Virus record (IMG/VR): IMGVR_UViG_3300036785_000282
Span: 1-50,776 of that record
Reading direction: 5' to 3' (one strand)
DNA from: a virus
Taxonomy: Duplodnaviria; Caudoviricetes
DNA: 50,776 nt
Shown here: positions 2,913-31,984 of the stretch, piece after piece
Numbering within the stretch: the stretch's first letter is position 1
How the letters are laid out: every line of letters starts with the position of its first letter
Notes under the pieces: generated by a model
The model's input: the letters and a program-made list of their open reading frames with translations, nothing else
Told to the model about the DNA's origin: nothing
Database searches by the model: none
Translations under genes and position numbers: made by a program

Positions 2913-5267
2913 TTATTTAGTTCCTGTAAACGGAATGACGTTGTTAGGTGCAATCATAAAACCATCCTTTAATCGTAAGCCTTTCCATCCCTGCACCGTT
3001 GTAGCTACGCCATCCATACGTATGCTGCCCTTATCTGCTCTACCGCGCATAGTGGAGCGCATAGCCCGTGTGAAGGTGGTACGTGTCATAGCTGAACCGC
3101 CTTCACTAACGCGCCACATTTTATAAGCGTTATAAACTGCTTCAGTGGTTTCTTTATAGCCTTCACCAAGTTCACAACGTTCTAAAATAAAGCCCATCAA
3201 TGGTGCCTGCTGACTAATGATCTCTTCACGTTCAATACGACTTGCTTCTGGTTCAGTAAATCTACCATTAGTTCTTAAACGGGCTAGACCTTCTATTGCC
3301 CAATTGCATATCCCCGGTAACTCAGTAAGTAAACGCCCGGTTAGTGTCGGATCTTCCGATCCTAAATAAGTACGGTTGAAAGGAAGAATCAATAGACGGT
3401 TTGCCATAGCGCCGGAATCATCAGCAAATGACGGTACATTGTTTGCTGCCATGGTTATGCGACCCGGTAAACAACCATTCCACGCGCCCTTATATTTGCG
3501 GTTAAATGAAATATTATCGTTACCAGTAATGGCTTTGAATGACTCCATTACCTTATTTCTGTCGTTACCCGTGATACTGTGAGCATCACCCACAAACAAT
3601 ACAGTTTTATCGCTGATGTTTTCTAAAATCGCATCATTAGACAAACCACCTAAAGAAATACCGGCATAAGTCTGATCACCTACCAGTTCTTTCAATATGC
3701 GCCCAATGGTACCTTTACCGGAACGAGGCGCACCAATAAACAACATCGCTTTTTGATATTCATAGCTGGTTACTAACATATAACCTAACCATTCCTGCAA
3801 CAGTCCAATGCGTTCGGCATCACCTTCCAATGTACCGGCTAAGAACGATAACCACTGTGGCGCTTTAACAGCGGGGTCGTAATTATATGGTAACATGCCA
3901 GTAGTGAAATAAGCCGCGTTATGCGGTTCTAACACGCCTGTATGAACGTCTAAAATACCATTTTGACAAACCACCAAGTGTGATGTATCACGGCCCGGCC
4001 ATGTTCCTAATACGATAGCTGAACGAGTAAATAAATAACTCAATACTTTGAATGTACCGTTAATAACATCGGCTTTTGGTTCACTGGCTAACATCGCCAT
4101 AGTGAGTTGGTGTTTTAATTCATCTTCTGTAAATCGTTCCCAAACCTTACCGTTAAAGCGATATGGCTGTTGTTGAACAAATACTAACGTATTGTTGGGG
4201 TAATAGTTTTGTACAAATGTTGCCGCGTTAACAGTATGGTTTTGCGCATAATTACCACCGGGCGACACACGGCTATAGGCTGGTTCGATATTTGGCACAA
4301 CCAAAGTAGGCGCAGGCTGAACCATGTTCATTAACTCAGTGGTTAATTTCGGCGGTTGTTTATAAACAACGTCGCAGCGATCGATAGCACTTAAAATGGT
4401 GTCTTGACGATATTTAGCACGTTCTGACCATTTACCACGGACTAACGCCGATTTATTAAATAAGTGTTCTATACGTTCGCAGTTGCAACCGGTCCAAAAT
4501 GCCAGATGTGAACAAAGTGCCATATCGGCAGAACTAAAGTTAAATTCCTTTCCCTGATCGCTCGGATATGTAGCTGATAAAGCTTCAATGTTGCGATTCC
4601 ATAAATCCTTAAAACTGGCTTTATTATTAAATGTTGTTCCAGCTGATTTACTTTCAAGAGCACGCCGAATTAGTTCCTCATCATCGGTAGGGCCATCCCA
4701 ATCTGGTCTTGGTGCCGTTGTCCAGTTATCTGGATTCTTATCACTGGCTACACGACCATAATCAGATATCATTGATAAAACACCGGCTGTGCAATCAACA
4801 TCCGGGTCACCTTGGCCCTGCATCGTCATGGCAACGAAACGCCACCGATAATACATTTCAAGCCCTAGTTTCTGATCATTCAATGAGCTAAATGATTCCG
4901 GCACTTCTGATGTACTACAAATAATATGTAGGCCGGTGCCAGATTGAGAAACCTCAATATAAGCACCGGGGAAGCGATTACAAATACCTAACGCAAACGC
5001 AGACCATGTATTATCAGGCTGCAAACAGTTGTCTATATCGATAAAGAAATACGGGTCATACTCCGATATCATATATCCGATACCGGTCATTGCTGTTACA
5101 CGTGCCACATTCAACGCAGTGTGATAATCAGACCAATGAGCAGGATTTGTTGAATCGGCACCATAACCGGTGTTTGGGCTATACGGAACTTTAGTAGGCT
5201 TTGGACGGCCTTCTACATGTTCCAACTTCCACATGATCCAGTTTTTACGCTGGTGAAGTCCGTTCAT
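2913..5267 (-). CDS. DNA primase-helicase (Prim-Pol N-terminus plus P4/D5-type SF3 helicase)
   Basis: FIDID and EVSQSGTGLH primase motifs; Walker A GAPRSGKGT; D5-like C-terminus. Confidence 0.92.
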   Translation of the reverse strand: MNGLHQRKNWIMWKLEHVEGRPKPTKVPYSPNTGYGADSTNPAHWSDYHTALNVARVTAMTGIGYMISEYDPYFFIDIDNCLQPDNTWSAFALGICNRFPGAYIEVSQSGTGLHIICSTSEVPESFSSLNDQKLGLEMYYRWRFVAMTMQGQGDPDVDCTAGVLSMISDYGRVASDKNPDNWTTAPRPDWDGPTDDEELIRRALESKSAGTTFNNKASFKDLWNRNIEALSATYPSDQGKEFNFSSADMALCSHLAFWTGCNCERIEHLFNKSALVRGKWSERAKYRQDTILSAIDRCDVVYKQPPKLTTELMNMVQPAPTLVVPNIEPAYSRVSPGGNYAQNHTVNAATFVQNYYPNNTLVFVQQQPYRFNGKVWERFTEDELKHQLTMAMLASEPKADVINGTFKVLSYLFTRSAIVLGTWPGRDTSHLVVCQNGILDVHTGVLEPHNAAYFTTGMLPYNYDPAVKAPQWLSFLAGTLEGDAERIGLLQEWLGYMLVTSYEYQKAMLFIGAPRSGKGTIGRILKELVGDQTYAGISLGGLSNDAILENISDKTVLFVGDAHSITGNDRNKVMESFKAITGNDNISFNRKYKGAWNGCLPGRITMAANNVPSFADDSGAMANRLLILPFNRTYLGSEDPTLTGRLLTELPGICNWAIEGLARLRTNGRFTEPEASRIEREEIISQQAPLMGFILERCELGEGYKETTEAVYNAYKMWRVSEGGSAMTRTTFTRAMRSTMRGRADKGSIRMDGVATTVQGWKGLRLKDGFMIAPNNVIPFTGTK

Positions 5268-28729: not shown

Positions 28730-29121
28730 TACGCTGCACCAAGTGGATGAATATAGGCCATTGCATCACCTAATAATCGGGGGTGTTGTTCAGTTAATAA
28801 TTTATATTTTTTACCACTCGTTTCTGTGATTATATCACCAAGTTGAGTAACACAAACGATATCTGGGAATCCGGGATTAACAACCAAAGATCGTTTGTCA
28901 AAAATAACCATGGTTGTAGTTACTCGTGTTTGTGTACCGGCATCCCATTTTATTTCCGGGTAGATATATCCCCGACCCGTCCATGAATAAATTGTGTCTA
29001 TACCGGGCTGTGTTGGCTTATTAGGGTCTTTGACAGTTACTTTACGGGTAACTGTCAAATCTTCCCCAGTCTCCAATAGCGCCCGTGTGACGCCATCTAA
29101 AACGTTAGCACGTTGATCCAT
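28729..29121 (-). CDS. head closure / head-tail joining protein
   Basis: Synteny and size. Confidence 0.65.
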   Translation of the reverse strand: MDQRANVLDGVTRALLETGEDLTVTRKVTVKDPNKPTQPGIDTIYSWTGRGYIYPEIKWDAGTQTRVTTTMVIFDKRSLVVNPGFPDIVCVTQLGDIITETSGKKYKLLTEQHPRLLGDAMAYIHPLGAA

Positions 29122-29500
29122 TATCTGAATCCTCTAATGTGATAGGTGGGTTATCAAATTGACCACGGCGAATTACTGGTGGGGCTACGCCTGTTAATGT
29201 TACCGAACCAGCTCCCATTAATGCACCAAACCCACCACCCGGAACACCAGCACCTAAATTTTTACGCAGAATTAAATCTTTTTTGATCTTATTCCACGCA
29301 TCAGCAGATTGGCTACCTGATAAACTAATTGGGCCAACTTTTATATCTGTTGAATTTGCTACCAATGATGCCATGTAATCACAAAGAGCGATTGCAACAT
29401 CGATATCTGAAGTATAACCGCCATCAATTAAATATTGGATCTGTTCATCTGGCAGATCAGGAACCGCAACAAGATAACGCACACCCTGCACTGTTGGCAT
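29105..29500 (-). CDS. head-tail adaptor protein
   Basis: VRYLV...L.DE.I.Y motif; synteny. Confidence 0.7.
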   Translation of the reverse strand: MPTVQGVRYLVAVPDLPDEQIQYLIDGGYTSDIDVAIALCDYMASLVANSTDIKVGPISLSGSQSADAWNKIKKDLILRKNLGAGVPGGGFGALMGAGSVTLTGVAPPVIRRGQFDNPPITLEDSDNGSTC

Positions 29501-29562
29501 TTTATCTACTCTTGTGATATGGGATTTAAATAACAGTGTATCATGACAATATAGCAGAAATC

Positions 29563-29583
29563 AAAAAACCCGCCGAAGCGGGT
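29563..29583 (-). terminator. intrinsic terminator closing the RNA cluster
   Basis: ACCCGC-TTCG-GCGGGT-TTTTT. Confidence 0.85.
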
Positions 29584-29719
29584 ATAATGACTGGGACTTC
29601 ATCATAGGATAATTTACGAGGGCTGCCAGAAACCTCGATTACCGCCTATGCGGGGTGATGCTACTTAACCTTCACATTCACCAATTCGCGCGGTTTTTAA
29701 GCCGGGGTTCCGAATCAAT
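29563..29719 (-). ncRNA. putative ~155-nt stand-alone small RNA
   Basis: Own promoter and terminator; no ORF; hairpins CCGC-ATAG-GCGG and CGAGG..CCTCG. Confidence 0.55.
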
Positions 29720-29725
29720 ACGGTA

Positions 29726-29755
29726 ATAATATTCTATTTCGGTCTATCTTGTCAA
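29726..29755 (-). promoter_or_regulatory. sigma70 promoter right after the tRNA-Leu CCA end
   Basis: TTGACA-18-TATTAT. Confidence 0.65.
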
Positions 29756-29756
29756 C

Positions 29757-29842
29757 TGGTATCAGATGTGGGACTTGAACCCACACAGCCATAAGCCGAG
29801 GGATTTTAAATCCCTTGTGTCTACCTATTCCACCAATCTGAT
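29757..29842 (-). tRNA. tRNA-Leu(TAA)
   Basis: Acceptor ATCAGAT/ATCTGAT-A-CCA; anticodon arm AGGGA-TTTAAAA-TCCCT; long variable arm; GTTCAAGT T-loop. Confidence 0.95.
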
Positions 29843-29846
29843 AAAA

Positions 29847-29923
29847 TGGTGCGTCTTACTGGACTTGAACCAGTGACCAAGCGGTTATGAGCCGCGTGCT
29901 CTAACCAACTGAGCTAAAGACAC
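29847..29923 (-). tRNA. tRNA with CAT anticodon, most likely tRNA-Ile2 (lysidine) rather than Met
   Basis: Cloverleaf with encoded CCA; GCGG-CTCATAA-CCGC; body resembles enterobacterial ileX-type tRNA. Confidence 0.9.
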
Positions 29924-30420
29924 AAAATGAAACACCATCGTAAATTTTCCTGAAACGCCCCCGTTCCAATTGGTTAAATAAAGAATGATGTTTCGTTTTG
30001 TGCACTACAATGCTAACTGCTTTTAACTCTCACCCTAACAATCGTAATGCTTTGTACCACCGATCGGGGTCATTGTACAATATATTAAAAACAGTTAGCG
30101 TTGTATGCCGGTTACGTTTATCCGGCGTCATATGACCGATTTAGCCCAAAGGTAGCACCTTGGTAGACTGTGGTCGCAACAGGTTATTGTTGCCTTCCCC
30201 CTTTCGGGTGGCCCTTTTACCACAAGGGTATGAATCATTTCCCCGAGCCTTCACTTTCTCGGTAAGGTTCCCCGCGCTTAACTCCACTCGGGCCAGTTTG
30301 CGTTCTGGCTTGTGTGGCTACCCGACAAGATTCATTCACAATGATTAACGAGCCGGAAATGATTCATACCGTTGTGTACCGGTCTTTCCCGGCTGTCAGT
30401 TATGCAATCTTCCCATCGTA
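29921..30420 (-). ncRNA. structured non-coding RNA array (three long stems with enclosed segments and repeated small hairpins)
   Basis: Inverted repeats 29921-29938/29985-30002, 30006-30026/30085-30105 and 30227-30242/30355-30370. Confidence 0.7.
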
Positions 30421-30435
30421 GCCAGCGTGGGGAAG

Positions 30436-30479
30436 TGTCGCGACCTTTCGGTTTCTGCCTATAGCTTCATCAGGCGACA
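30436..30479 (-). ncRNA. type I hammerhead-like ribozyme
   Basis: TGTCGC-CTGATGA-AGCTATAGGCA-GAAA-CC-GAAA-GG-TC-GCGACA; full core with a GUC cleavage triplet. Confidence 0.75.
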
Positions 30480-30561
30480 TAAATAATGCTGGCCTACACC
30501 TATCTACTTTACATAACAACGATAGGAAACGCTCATTCGAGTAATATCAACTCACAAACAA

Positions 30562-30590
30562 AGAATACGTTAAGAAATATCGTAAGTCAA
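30562..30590 (-). promoter_or_regulatory. sigma70 promoter of the RNA cluster
   Basis: TTGACT-17-TATTCT. Confidence 0.7.
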
Positions 30591-30899
30591 ATTTTGTTTT
30601 TCACACCATTCGACCGCTGGTTTTTTACCTTTAGTTTCAGGCTTATGCATAGGCATACCGCCAACATACACGATAAAGTAACCGTCTTTGTCTTTCTCGA
30701 TCTTAGCCTGTGCTGCCGGTGGCGGTGGTGTCTCAGGTTCGACAACTACCGGTGCTTCACGAATAATATGATGTTGCAGAAATAAATCTAAGGTATGGCG
30801 CGGTAGTTCTGGCACAGGTGACCCATCTTGGCACAACTCACCTTCGATAACTTTTGTTTGACTCATTACGTAATTTTTAGAAGGATCGTAATGTTTCAT
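30570..30899 (-). CDS. hypothetical protein downstream of the capsid gene
   Basis: GAGG RBS; ORF track. Confidence 0.75.
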   Translation of the reverse strand: MKHYDPSKNYVMSQTKVIEGELCQDGSPVPELPRHTLDLFLQHHIIREAPVVVEPETPPPPAAQAKIEKDKDGYFIVYVGGMPMHKPETKGKKPAVEWCEKQNLTYDIS

Positions 30900-30917: not shown

Positions 30918-30939
30918 AAAAAAGGCGACCGAAGTCGCC
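30918..30939 (-). terminator. terminator after the major capsid gene
   Basis: GGCGAC-TTCG-GTCGCC-TTTTTT. Confidence 0.85.
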
Positions 30940-30958: not shown

Positions 30959-31984
30959 TTATGCAGAAAGAGCATTATCAAACAAGATACCCAAATCTGG
31001 TGATATCATGGAAATATCGATAGCAAATTCTGCTTCAACGAAATTACCACGGCGGCCTTCAACGCCCGGATACTGACGAATTGCTGGGCCATTTTCCGCA
31101 CCCAGTGCCACAAAGTCATTCCATGCGAAACCAGCAGCGGCAACTGGTGACATATCACCAACGGTTGGCACAACATGGTTCAACATCAGTTTACCTTTTG
31201 CCATGAATTGCAGATCGTTAACTGGGTTACCGTCTGAATCTTCGATACCATCTGAATTCATGTTAACTACGGACTGCATGATCTCAATTTCTTGAACATG
31301 CAGCAATGCAGCTAGCGCATCTTTAGTAATTGCCGCTGGGTTAGTATTGTTACCACCGTAAATAACACGATTCAATACCGCTGGGTGACGTGACAGGGCG
31401 TTAAATACGTCCAGTGTCATCAGCGCTTTGTTCCATGGGCGACCACCTGAACGCAGTGAGAAACCAACTTCCTCACCCAGAATCGTATCGATCGGGTCAG
31501 ATGTTGGATCATCCCAGAATTTAAACTCATTCGTGCCGGTACCGGCAGCAGAACCAGTTAAAGTTTTAGTCCACTTACCGGTTTGCAAAAACTTCTCAGT
31601 AAAGTCAATTTCTTTATTGATCAGCAATACATCAGTAACTAACTGAGTTGCTTCAAAATCAAGATTTTGACCGTTTTGGACGTTTTTACGTTTTTTATCC
31701 GAAATAAAAACACGGATCGCATCGTCATCAACGGCATAACTACCACGGGTGGTTTTATACCCGATGGTATTCGCTACACCATCTTCAGCACGTTTTGAGT
31801 TAACAGGACGGCTAAAGTAACCGGATGGGTATTTAGTAAATGTACCCGCTGCGAAATTAACCGGGACAACCGGGAAATAACGCGTACCGACAAATAAACT
31901 AGTATCCTGCCAGTAAGCAACCGAAAAGTTACTAAGCGGTAGGTCTAGATTAACGTCGCGGTAATCCTGATGATATTGTGGCAT
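30959..31984 (-). CDS. major capsid protein
   Basis: 341 aa; D.PLSNFSVAY start; W.D.TSDP motif; follows the scaffold and decoration genes. Confidence 0.9.
   Translation of the reverse strand: MPQYHQDYRDVNLDLPLSNFSVAYWQDTSLFVGTRYFPVVPVNFAAGTFTKYPSGYFSRPVNSKRAEDGVANTIGYKTTRGSYAVDDDAIRVFISDKKRKNVQNGQNLDFEATQLVTDVLLINKEIDFTEKFLQTGKWTKTLTGSAAGTGTNEFKFWDDPTSDPIDTILGEEVGFSLRSGGRPWNKALMTLDVFNALSRHPAVLNRVIYGGNNTNPAAITKDALAALLHVQEIEIMQSVVNMNSDGIEDSDGNPVNDLQFMAKGKLMLNHVVPTVGDMSPVAAAGFAWNDFVALGAENGPAIRQYPGVEGRRGNFVEAEFAIDISMISPDLGILFDNALSA

Follow-up and report, generated by a model that had tools for sequence, protein, structure and literature searches.

A co-oriented array of structured RNA modules and tRNAs in a phage genome, with related modules in other phages and prophages

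Overview

The IMG/VR virus record IMGVR_UViG_3300036785_000282, whose 50,776 bases (completeness estimate 91%) are referred to here as the window, carries on its minus strand, between positions 30590 and 29561, a block of structured RNA modules and two transfer RNA (tRNA) genes. The block is a real, non-coding, co-oriented array that lies between a promoter and a terminator. Read on the minus strand it runs from a promoter-like site through a 5′ leader element, three stem-closed cassettes (M1, M2 and M3) and two small hairpin motifs (B and A) to the tRNAs, a putative small RNA (sRNA) and the terminator. The array is not peculiar to this phage, as nearly every module has relatives elsewhere in other combinations. 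The reading preferred here, at a probability of about 0.55, is that the block is one terminator-bounded, sigma-70-driven operon of exchangeable RNA cassettes and tRNAs that is cut apart by host ribonucleases (RNases).

An earlier note on this DNA, written from its letters alone, had outlined an RNA operon of this kind and saw no credible open reading frame (ORF) in it; no ORF within 29501-30569 is longer than 62 amino acids. That note also called for a comparison with Rfam, which at gathering level returns only the two tRNAs, and no single family explains the block. At E<=10 the further matches of a 1351-nucleotide (nt) search are all weak, driven by the terminator and confined to the putative sRNA. 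The fold of the 647-nt leader surpasses those of 20 of 20 shuffled sequences (z = -5.46).

Stem-enclosed cassettes and their relatives

Each of the three cassettes consists of a segment closed by a long helix. M1 (30219..30376, minus strand; module length 158 nt) has a closing stem of 22 base pairs (bp) between arms 30376-30355 and 30242-30221, around a structured cargo of 112 nt; the 22-nt arms of this inverted repeat are 95% complementary, lie 112 nt apart and include a 16-bp perfect stem. M2 (30006..30105, minus) is closed by 21 bp with one C.A mismatch (21-nt arms, 90% complementary, 58 nt apart) and encloses 58 nt. M3 (29921..30002, minus) has a closing stem of 18-19 bp that encloses about 44 nt, and appears as an inverted repeat with 27-nt arms, 78% complementary and 28 nt apart, that contain the 18-19 bp core. 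The final three bases of M3 are the first three of the tRNA with anticodon CAT. All three of the long stems that the earlier note had placed here, around about 110, 58 and 46 nt, are found, and the enclosed lengths were right within a few bases. Substrates of Escherichia coli RNase III need about two helical turns of double helix; this length (at least 20 bp) is reached by M1 (22) and M2 (21), and M3 is shorter.

Directly before the first closing stem lies hairpin motif B, CCGG-GAAAGA-CCGG (30378..30397, minus). Its counterpart at the same place in the fetched locus L057 reads CUGG...CCAG, a compensatory change, and small hairpins like it precede stem-closed modules in other loci too. Between M1 and motif A, a multi-stem element (30164..30226, minus) is closed by UUGUGGU/ACCACAG and contains two inner hairpins. 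This element is homologous to a cargo that lies inside a conserved stalk in L057 and L061.

Many relatives have one stalk sequence in common. By itself, the 3′ arm of this stalk is present in at least 120 IMG/VR stretches, and a scan of all fetched loci gave 144 stalk modules in 142 loci. Within this constant stalk of about 20 bp lie 90 unique cargos of 35-176 nt, which fall into 55 unrelated clusters. The question raised earlier, whether stems are conserved in relatives while the enclosed segments vary, is therefore answered positively: one stalk encloses 55 unrelated cargo clusters. An intrinsic terminator or a small hairpin, resembling motif A or motif B, comes before the stalk modules. The window stems M1-M3 share with this stalk only the stem base, (C/U)ACAA...UUGU(G/A); the rest of the helix differs among M1, M2 and M3 while its pairing is kept. 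Cargo lengths are spread over the three frames (20/14/21 for the remainders modulo 3), and the cargos are therefore not coding. One Sasha cargo that reads as a Cys-rich peptide was considered as a coding candidate and rejected on the same ground.

Seven of the 55 cargo clusters of the relatives contain a T-arm-like GTTCRANTC hairpin, and one cluster contains a hammerhead-like sequence. The T-arm-like hairpins bear on an alternative in which the segments inside the stems derive from tRNA genes by decay or rearrangement, or mimic tRNAs in the manner of Y RNAs and bind tRNA-handling host proteins. Such an origin would also suit the closing stems that abut true tRNAs in the window and in L170, the large insertions in tRNAs of L057 and L170, and the combination of a long stem with a tRNA-like domain that PMC4201824 describes for bacterial Y RNAs. 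However, the hairpin is missing from 48 of the 55 clusters, and the three cargos of the window give no tRNA signal in ARAGORN or Rfam and contain no T-arm-like hairpin by eye. No Y-RNA family is among the Rfam matches at E<=10, and the TROVE/Rsr (Ro-like) domain was not found in the 20 window ORFs tested. A tRNA-like nature of the cargos is thus considered quite improbable. The two insertion-bearing tRNAs, a 129-nt tRNA-Met in L170 (2601-2729) and a 125-nt tRNA in L057 (7511-7635; Rfam 38.9 bits), have insertions of about 50 nt, and both directly follow a stalk module; introns or a chimeric origin may account for them.

Covariation in the M1 family

M1 is a structured RNA family with covariation. 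Together with motif B (30399-30216) it is 84.9% identical to L057, and its 20-nt core is present in 26 IMG/VR stretches. The family alignment contains 19 distinct sequences and 45 pairs in seven helices, all of which are kept in the window row. Of its 853 cells 98.8% are paired; shuffles reach 93.6%, and sliding the structure along the alignment leaves 40-49%. Compensatory change is seen in 14 of the 45 pairs (expected 5.8 +/- 1.5), a number reached in none of 500 shuffles. Several stem positions are mostly U.G on the tRNA strand (e.g. in 16/19, 15/19 and 11/19 sequences). Read on the other strand they would become A.C mismatches, so the fold has been selected in the RNA of the tRNA strand. 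Counted in all long stems up to 1.5 kb from motif A, G.U and A.C stand at 94 to 69, an excess kept small by the many chance stems in coding DNA that it includes, and the M1 alignment is the cleaner test.

A homologue of M1 is present in the P1-like E. coli plasmid L170, where it adjoins the 129-nt tRNA-Met. Some 1 kb downstream of the M1/tRNA array in this plasmid come a Tad2 anti-Thoeris gene (3549-4124), lpa and pacA.

Module exchange

Close relatives differ from the window by whole-module replacement at module borders. A contig from a public run (X2) is collinear with the window over 29857-30230 and 30556-30700, and 158 other letters replace the 325 nt of the window that carry the 5′ element, motif B and M1. 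A second contig (X4) matches 29796-30003 and is unlike the window thereafter, position 30003 being the border of M3 and M2. The end of an X4 contig at 30374, two bases from the M1 arm, was left uncounted since a contig end is no junction. Some of the X2 differences listed are smaller and fall in stems: 30011 T>C restores a C-G pair at the C.A mismatch of M2, and the pair 29928/29995 changes from C.A to U.G. At 30103, G>A gives U.G on the RNA strand of M2, which would be C.A on the other strand.

Modules of the window are common to 9NA-like, lambdoid and P1-like elements. This mobility could also be that of DNA: the modules might be selfish or neutral cassettes (like invertons or miniature inverted-repeat transposable elements, MITEs) or recombination scars that spread via short inverted ends, their RNA structure being incidental. 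Such an explanation accommodates the whole-module replacement between close relatives, the presence of the same modules in unrelated phage types (9NA-like, lambdoid, P1-like plasmid) and the conserved inverted sequences at module ends. It does not accommodate the fixed orientation of the modules, since stalk and motif A are oriented alike in 31 cases and oppositely in 3, and the orientation is also fixed with respect to the tRNAs. Nor is any cargo the reverse complement of another among the 90 unique cargos, although inverted pairs would be expected of an inverton or MITE. Many G.U pairs occur on one strand only, and compensatory changes lie inside the cargos. A selfish DNA origin is for these reasons regarded as improbable, and exchange of RNA cassettes is preferred.

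Motif A

The second small hairpin motif proposed in the earlier note proves to be real, and is a two-hairpin element with covariation that recurs in at least 119 viral stretches. The window copy of motif A (30105..30163, minus) consists of H1 (30163-30146), H2 (30138-30126) and H3 (CCGG-AUAAACGUAA-CCGG, 30125-30108) followed by CAU. This agrees with the consensus, in which H2 has a C-G closing pair, a bulged G and a variable stem, and is followed by CYGG-AUAAACGUAA-CCRG and CAY. The 18-mer CYGGATAAACGTAACCRG occurs in at least 119 IMG/VR stretches which, with the window and three named loci, make up 67 sequence clusters. Among the instances listed, the Y/R pair covaries in 116 of 119 (C-G in 70, U-A in 46), and H2 adjoins H3 in 101 of 119, compared with a mean of 27.7 and a maximum of 40 in 200 shuffles of the flanks. 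The H2 stem has 3-8 bp, and H2 takes 45 distinct sequences among the same instances.

A covariance model of the motif (R1), built from 15 copies, finds exactly one copy in the window (30105-30142, 59.1 bits). In the R1 alignment of 89 hits (78 distinct), 98.6% of cells are paired (89.5% in shuffles) and 56 have changed on both sides (17.2 in shuffles, with none of 500 reaching the observed number); these values are to be read with the caveat that three of the four H3 pairs are fixed by the search pattern and that the alignment is fitted to the model. Covariation among relatives, for which the earlier note had asked, is thus present in motif A as well as in M1. Loop variants elsewhere all end in RUAA (ACGCGUAA, CGCGUAA, AUAAACAUAA, ACAAUCAUAA and AUAGAGUAA).

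In 596 Gb of bacterial genomes the motif A pattern has 36 matches, about seven of which have the flanking signature by reading, and the motif is therefore strongly phage-enriched. The bacterial carriers with the signature are Erwinia, Raoultella, Serratia, Castellaniella, a Rhizobiales isolate and an Ohtaekwangia metagenome-assembled genome, with L144 and L160 doubtful. The 10-nt loop of motif A is invariant in phages of several proteobacterial orders and probably points to contact with some conserved component of the host. The H3 hairpin (30108-30125, minus) may in part resemble the 3′ end of the type I-E clustered regularly interspaced short palindromic repeat (CRISPR), a likeness that is not used as support. 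The Y-RNA motif given in PMC4201824 fits H2 only where the loop is GAAA, which is not so in the window, and was set aside as a coincidence.

What follows motif A varies. In the window it is a long-stem cassette and no ORF. In L048, L058, L085 and L088 a tRNA begins 6-10 nt later, and tRNAs near motif A, found in 15 of 122 other stretches, are all on the motif strand. In L024 motif A is directly followed by the int-alpA RNA of Rfam (RF02996; 438-504, minus; 45.2 bits), and this known orphan motif is therefore one cassette of such arrays. The sequence that follows motif A in L024 also recurs, by eye, in L071, L047, L064, L113 and L122. In L086, a prophage-type contig, a member of the Salmonella sRNA family STnc100 (86.2 bits) lies at 1846-2041, about 1.3 kb downstream of motif A.

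Many further contigs have motif A 15-40 nt ahead of a Shine-Dalgarno (SD) sequence and start codon, and these positions make a role in cis a serious rival. The array would then be a cis-acting leader, and read-through, stability or translation of the downstream connector and tail genes would be controlled by its hairpins, motif A above all; put-like antitermination, a processing signal or a 5′ stabiliser are possible modes. By eye, the H2 loop is complementary to the SD region in several loci, with a pair that differs between them (L021/L027, L099, L019/L096, L120, L033/L107), and a -10-like hexamer lies 6-7 nt upstream of motif A in about eight clusters. Within 350 nt, locus L031 (4033-4375) carries three H3-type hairpins that differ in their loops, and the last of them immediately precedes an SD sequence and start codon; this arrangement suggests a signal repeated in a single phage. 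The arrays of lambdoid prophages sit between the Q gene and the lysis genes, and the array of the window ends 60 nt before the connector gene. However, a strong terminator separates the array from that gene, and motif A of the window leads into an RNA cassette and not an ORF. The genes that follow motif A elsewhere are mutually unrelated (primase, Sak4-like, methyltransferase-like and unknowns), and a leader function leaves the 55 different cargos in one stalk unexplained. For the array as a whole a cis-acting leader is accordingly held to be rather unlikely.

The 5′ leader element

The 5′ leader element (30405..30534, minus) consists of a hairpin and an outer stem that encloses a hammerhead-like junction. 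Over 94 nt (30501-30408) it shares 91.5% identity with L071; in this lambdoid-type contig it comes after a promoter-like site and ahead of lysis genes. The consensus fold of the two sequences (alifold) has 30 pairs, of which four are compensatory and none is broken. An exact pattern search for the hammerhead-like element gave L071 as the only match, and a distant BLAST search of the 5′ element against E. coli genomes found nothing.

The hammerhead-like core (30436..30479, minus) is formed by a 6-bp helix I, CUGAUGA, a 3-bp helix II, GAA and a 3-bp helix III with a GAAA loop, followed by UC and the return strand of helix I. Its three-way junction is seen both in the minimum free energy fold and in the two-sequence consensus fold, and the conserved core elements CUGANGA, GAA and UH are present in order at 30479-30436. 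In 1.15 Mb of fetched loci a hammerhead scan gave three matches, compared with 0-1 in five shuffles: the window, L071 with one loop base different, and a near-canonical copy in L092. The last lies directly after motif A and is matched by the HH9 model with 24.4 bits (E = 0.0024), below gathering.

The order CUGAUGA / GAA / UC around three helices is that of a type I hammerhead (Rfam clan CL00010). The window copy differs in its 3-bp helices II and III and in a non-canonical helix II, whose closing pair at positions 10.1/11.1 is A.A or needs two insertions. The hammerhead seen in the earlier note thus stands as regards core sequence and three helices, and falls short in the covariance-model test, which it failed. 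With the A.A at 10.1/11.1, this failure is the reason for the label hammerhead-like. The element may self-cleave, although this is the less probable outcome.

Promoters, tRNAs and terminator

Promoter, tRNAs and terminator share one orientation. Both promoters of the earlier note are present as sigma-70-like sites. P1 (30562..30590, minus; TTGACT-17-TATTCT, score 9/12) overlaps the end of an ORF of 109 amino acids, and P2 (29726..29755, minus; TTGACA-18-TATTAT, score 11/12) lies after the tRNAs. Promoter-like sites are not enriched in the region (7 sites, with 4.8 +/- 2.2 expected), and the sites alone are therefore weak evidence. Positions 30610-30557 are kept at 83-89% identity in five Klebsiella 9NA-like loci; this conservation around P1 may equally reflect the end of the ORF.

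Both tRNAs were correctly recognized earlier and are recovered by ARAGORN and by Rfam model RF00005, the gathering score of which is 29. The first (29847..29923, minus; 64.7 bits) has the anticodon CAT, and the second (29757..29842, minus; 57.1 bits) is a tRNA-Leu (TAA) with a long variable arm. ARAGORN labels the CAT tRNA as Met; the closest E. coli genes, at 87.8% identity, are annotated as tRNA-Ile, and it is therefore probably Ile2. By sequence the CAT tRNA is probably of the AUA-decoding Ile2 type, paired here with a tRNA-Leu that reads UUA and UUG.

An intrinsic terminator, also predicted earlier, was found by terminator scan at 29561-29583 (minus), with its hairpin at 29583-29568; the scan found no other within the block upstream of it. 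The putative sRNA (29561..29720, minus; about 155 nt) is defined by a promoter match and this terminator, in which it ends. Of the sRNA claim, the upstream promoter and the terminator hold, and the fold is unremarkable (z = 0.05). An X2 contig spans this region (29483-29823) with 17 changes.

Genomic setting

The window belongs with a group of phages related to 9NA. The product of its major capsid protein gene (30959-31984, minus) is 66-68% identical to those of 9NA and Sasha (Salmonella) and of KP13-27 and Carvaje (Klebsiella). A capsid search gave 140 matching records, 24 of which fall in the 60-80% identity band, and a capsid protein search of a viral contig set found no relative. The array fills the gap between the small 109-amino-acid ORF after the capsid gene (30570-30899) and the first ORF of the connector region (29105-29500). 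A bidirectional-looking terminator hairpin at 30924-30939 lies directly after the capsid gene and before the 109-amino-acid ORF, so that this ORF and the RNA array may form a unit of their own.

The same gap is about 480 nt without annotation in Sasha, about 860 nt with a tRNA-Ser in Carvaje, 1,079 nt in KP13-27 and about 200-340 nt in 9NA, and in the Proteus and Morganella relatives there is almost no unannotated DNA. As both length and content differ so strongly among relatives, the site is a variable non-coding hotspot of the phage group. In the KP13-27 gap (L008 4070-4230) a short ORF with an SD sequence, resembling a small hydrophobic peptide, lies between RNA modules. A conserved element of about 150 nt, ending in a terminator before the connector gene, is common to 9NA, Sasha, Carvaje and KP13-27 (L001 3160-3390; L007 4090-4240; L003 7250-7400, minus; L008 4810-4960). 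Where these phages keep it the window carries unrelated sequence, the putative sRNA.

Proposed operon

On the preferred reading, a modular operon processed by host RNases, the array would belong to a widespread family of modular phage RNA arrays. Each cassette would be closed by a long helix with the base (C/U)ACAA...UUGU(G/A) and introduced by a small hairpin (motif B or A), and cassettes would be swapped between phages at helix borders, with the Ile2-like CAU and Leu-UAA tRNAs downstream of them. P1, or read-through from upstream, would drive a primary transcript of about 1 kb to the terminator at 29583, and P2 would add a short 3′ RNA ended by the same terminator. RNase P cleaves at tRNA 5′ ends as a matter of general tRNA biology. 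As the M3 stem overlaps the start of the tRNA-Ile2 by three bases, cleavage there would also release M3 at its 3′ end. RNase III would cut within the closing helices of at least 20 bp of M1 and M2, and the hammerhead-like element may self-cleave. The released RNAs would then act in trans as accessory factors.

As judged from context, an accessory role in an arms race fits the hypervariable locus, the association with tRNAs and, in one case (L170), an adjoining anti-defence gene. A decoy role of the released RNAs against host defence is speculation. Still broader, and put forward only tentatively as the less likely view, is that these arrays are an undescribed, widespread phage system in which a constant stalk and punctuation hairpins, motif A being the best conserved of these, frame dozens of unrelated cargos in hypervariable accessory loci next to tRNAs, an RNA counterpart of the islands of anti-defence genes. 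Each cargo (hammerheads, T-arm mimics, the M1 RNA), once released by host RNases, would neutralise or mimic a different host factor.

Several observations weigh against the operon and its proposed processing. P1 is a weak sigma-70 consensus match, and the Rfam hammerhead models do not match the window copy even at E<=10. For M2, M3 and the putative sRNA there is no homologue among about 270 fetched loci, so that their structure is that of one sequence and a few variants, and the fold of the putative sRNA is no better than that of shuffles. Motif A also occurs in the mRNA leaders of other phages, and at least this motif can therefore act in cis. Among public runs no RNA run carries the stretch, the matching contigs being DNA or of unknown kind. 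Cargos, leader and sRNA have only chance-level complementarity to the rest of the window (10-12 nt, E>0.3); an antisense action on the phage's own genome was rejected on this basis. One E. coli search for host targets of the cargos gave the M1 homologue as the only match. Finally, a Pfam scan of 20 window ORFs, the shorter ones being left out, gave no RNA-processing or RNA-binding family; 9 of the 20 have no Pfam match at all. Reverse transcriptase domains, which a retron would need, are likewise not among these 20. As the scanned ORFs include no recognisable RNA enzyme, reverse transcriptase or Ro-like protein, host factors must do the processing.

Comparison with known systems

RNase III processing stalks are known from ribosomal RNA operons and from the early mRNA sites of T7. 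The likeness lies in helices of at least 20 bp, with an occasional mismatch, that bracket each unit. The phage stalks differ in that the stalk sequence is itself conserved while the cargo changes, and cleavage here is predicted. The large RNAs GOLLD and ROOL adjoin tRNA genes in phages. They are described as large, ornate non-coding RNAs of phages (bioRxiv 10.1101/2024.12.08.627333), whereas the window has a string of small exchangeable units, not one large fold, and no Rfam match to them. The int-alpA RNA (RF02996), a structured RNA of phages and prophages, is one cassette of such an array in L024 but has no match in the window.

Bacterial Y RNAs (YrlA) have a long terminal stem and a structured, sometimes tRNA-like interior, and are also found in phages (PMC4201824). 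The window differs: it lacks a T/D-arm domain and an Rfam match to these RNAs, and the ORFs tested include no Rsr gene. The put RNA of HK022 (PMC9378689) is a promoter-proximal RNA of two hairpins with a cis action on the host machinery, and some copies of motif A are similarly placed. Compared by description rather than by sequence, put is about 70 nt with long bulged stems, unlike motif A.

Motif A, the M1-type RNA and the stalk are all well conserved, motif A and M1 with the further support of covariation, and all three are absent from Rfam 15. A literature search found neither a paper with the motif A string nor an account of arrays of this type. Pieces of these motifs may be listed in the supplements of a catalogue of 10,006 viral structured-RNA candidates (PMC10690425). 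The three elements occur in the cultivable phages Sasha, Bas82, Carvaje and KP13-27 and in prophages, and are therefore directly testable; in the P1-like plasmid the stalk was the only one of them seen.

Phage tRNA loci are now known to serve counter-defence; those of T6 are linked to escape from Septu in a 2026 paper (PMC13096335). The RNA cassettes, if functional, would add a large and fast-changing RNA repertoire to the accessory genomes of phages.

The nearest known relatives in organisation are the phage tRNA operons with stable small RNAs, such as that of T4. The T4 tRNA cluster is said to make two extra stable RNAs besides its tRNAs, and the likeness is that of tRNAs and structured RNAs co-transcribed and split by host RNases. 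The window, known from sequence alone, differs from operons of the T4 type by 650 nt of stem-closed modules, found again in other arrangements in many unrelated phages. Operons in which phage tRNAs go with further stable RNAs are a known kind, and what appears to be new is the architecture of a constant stalk with variable cargo, together with its punctuation motif.

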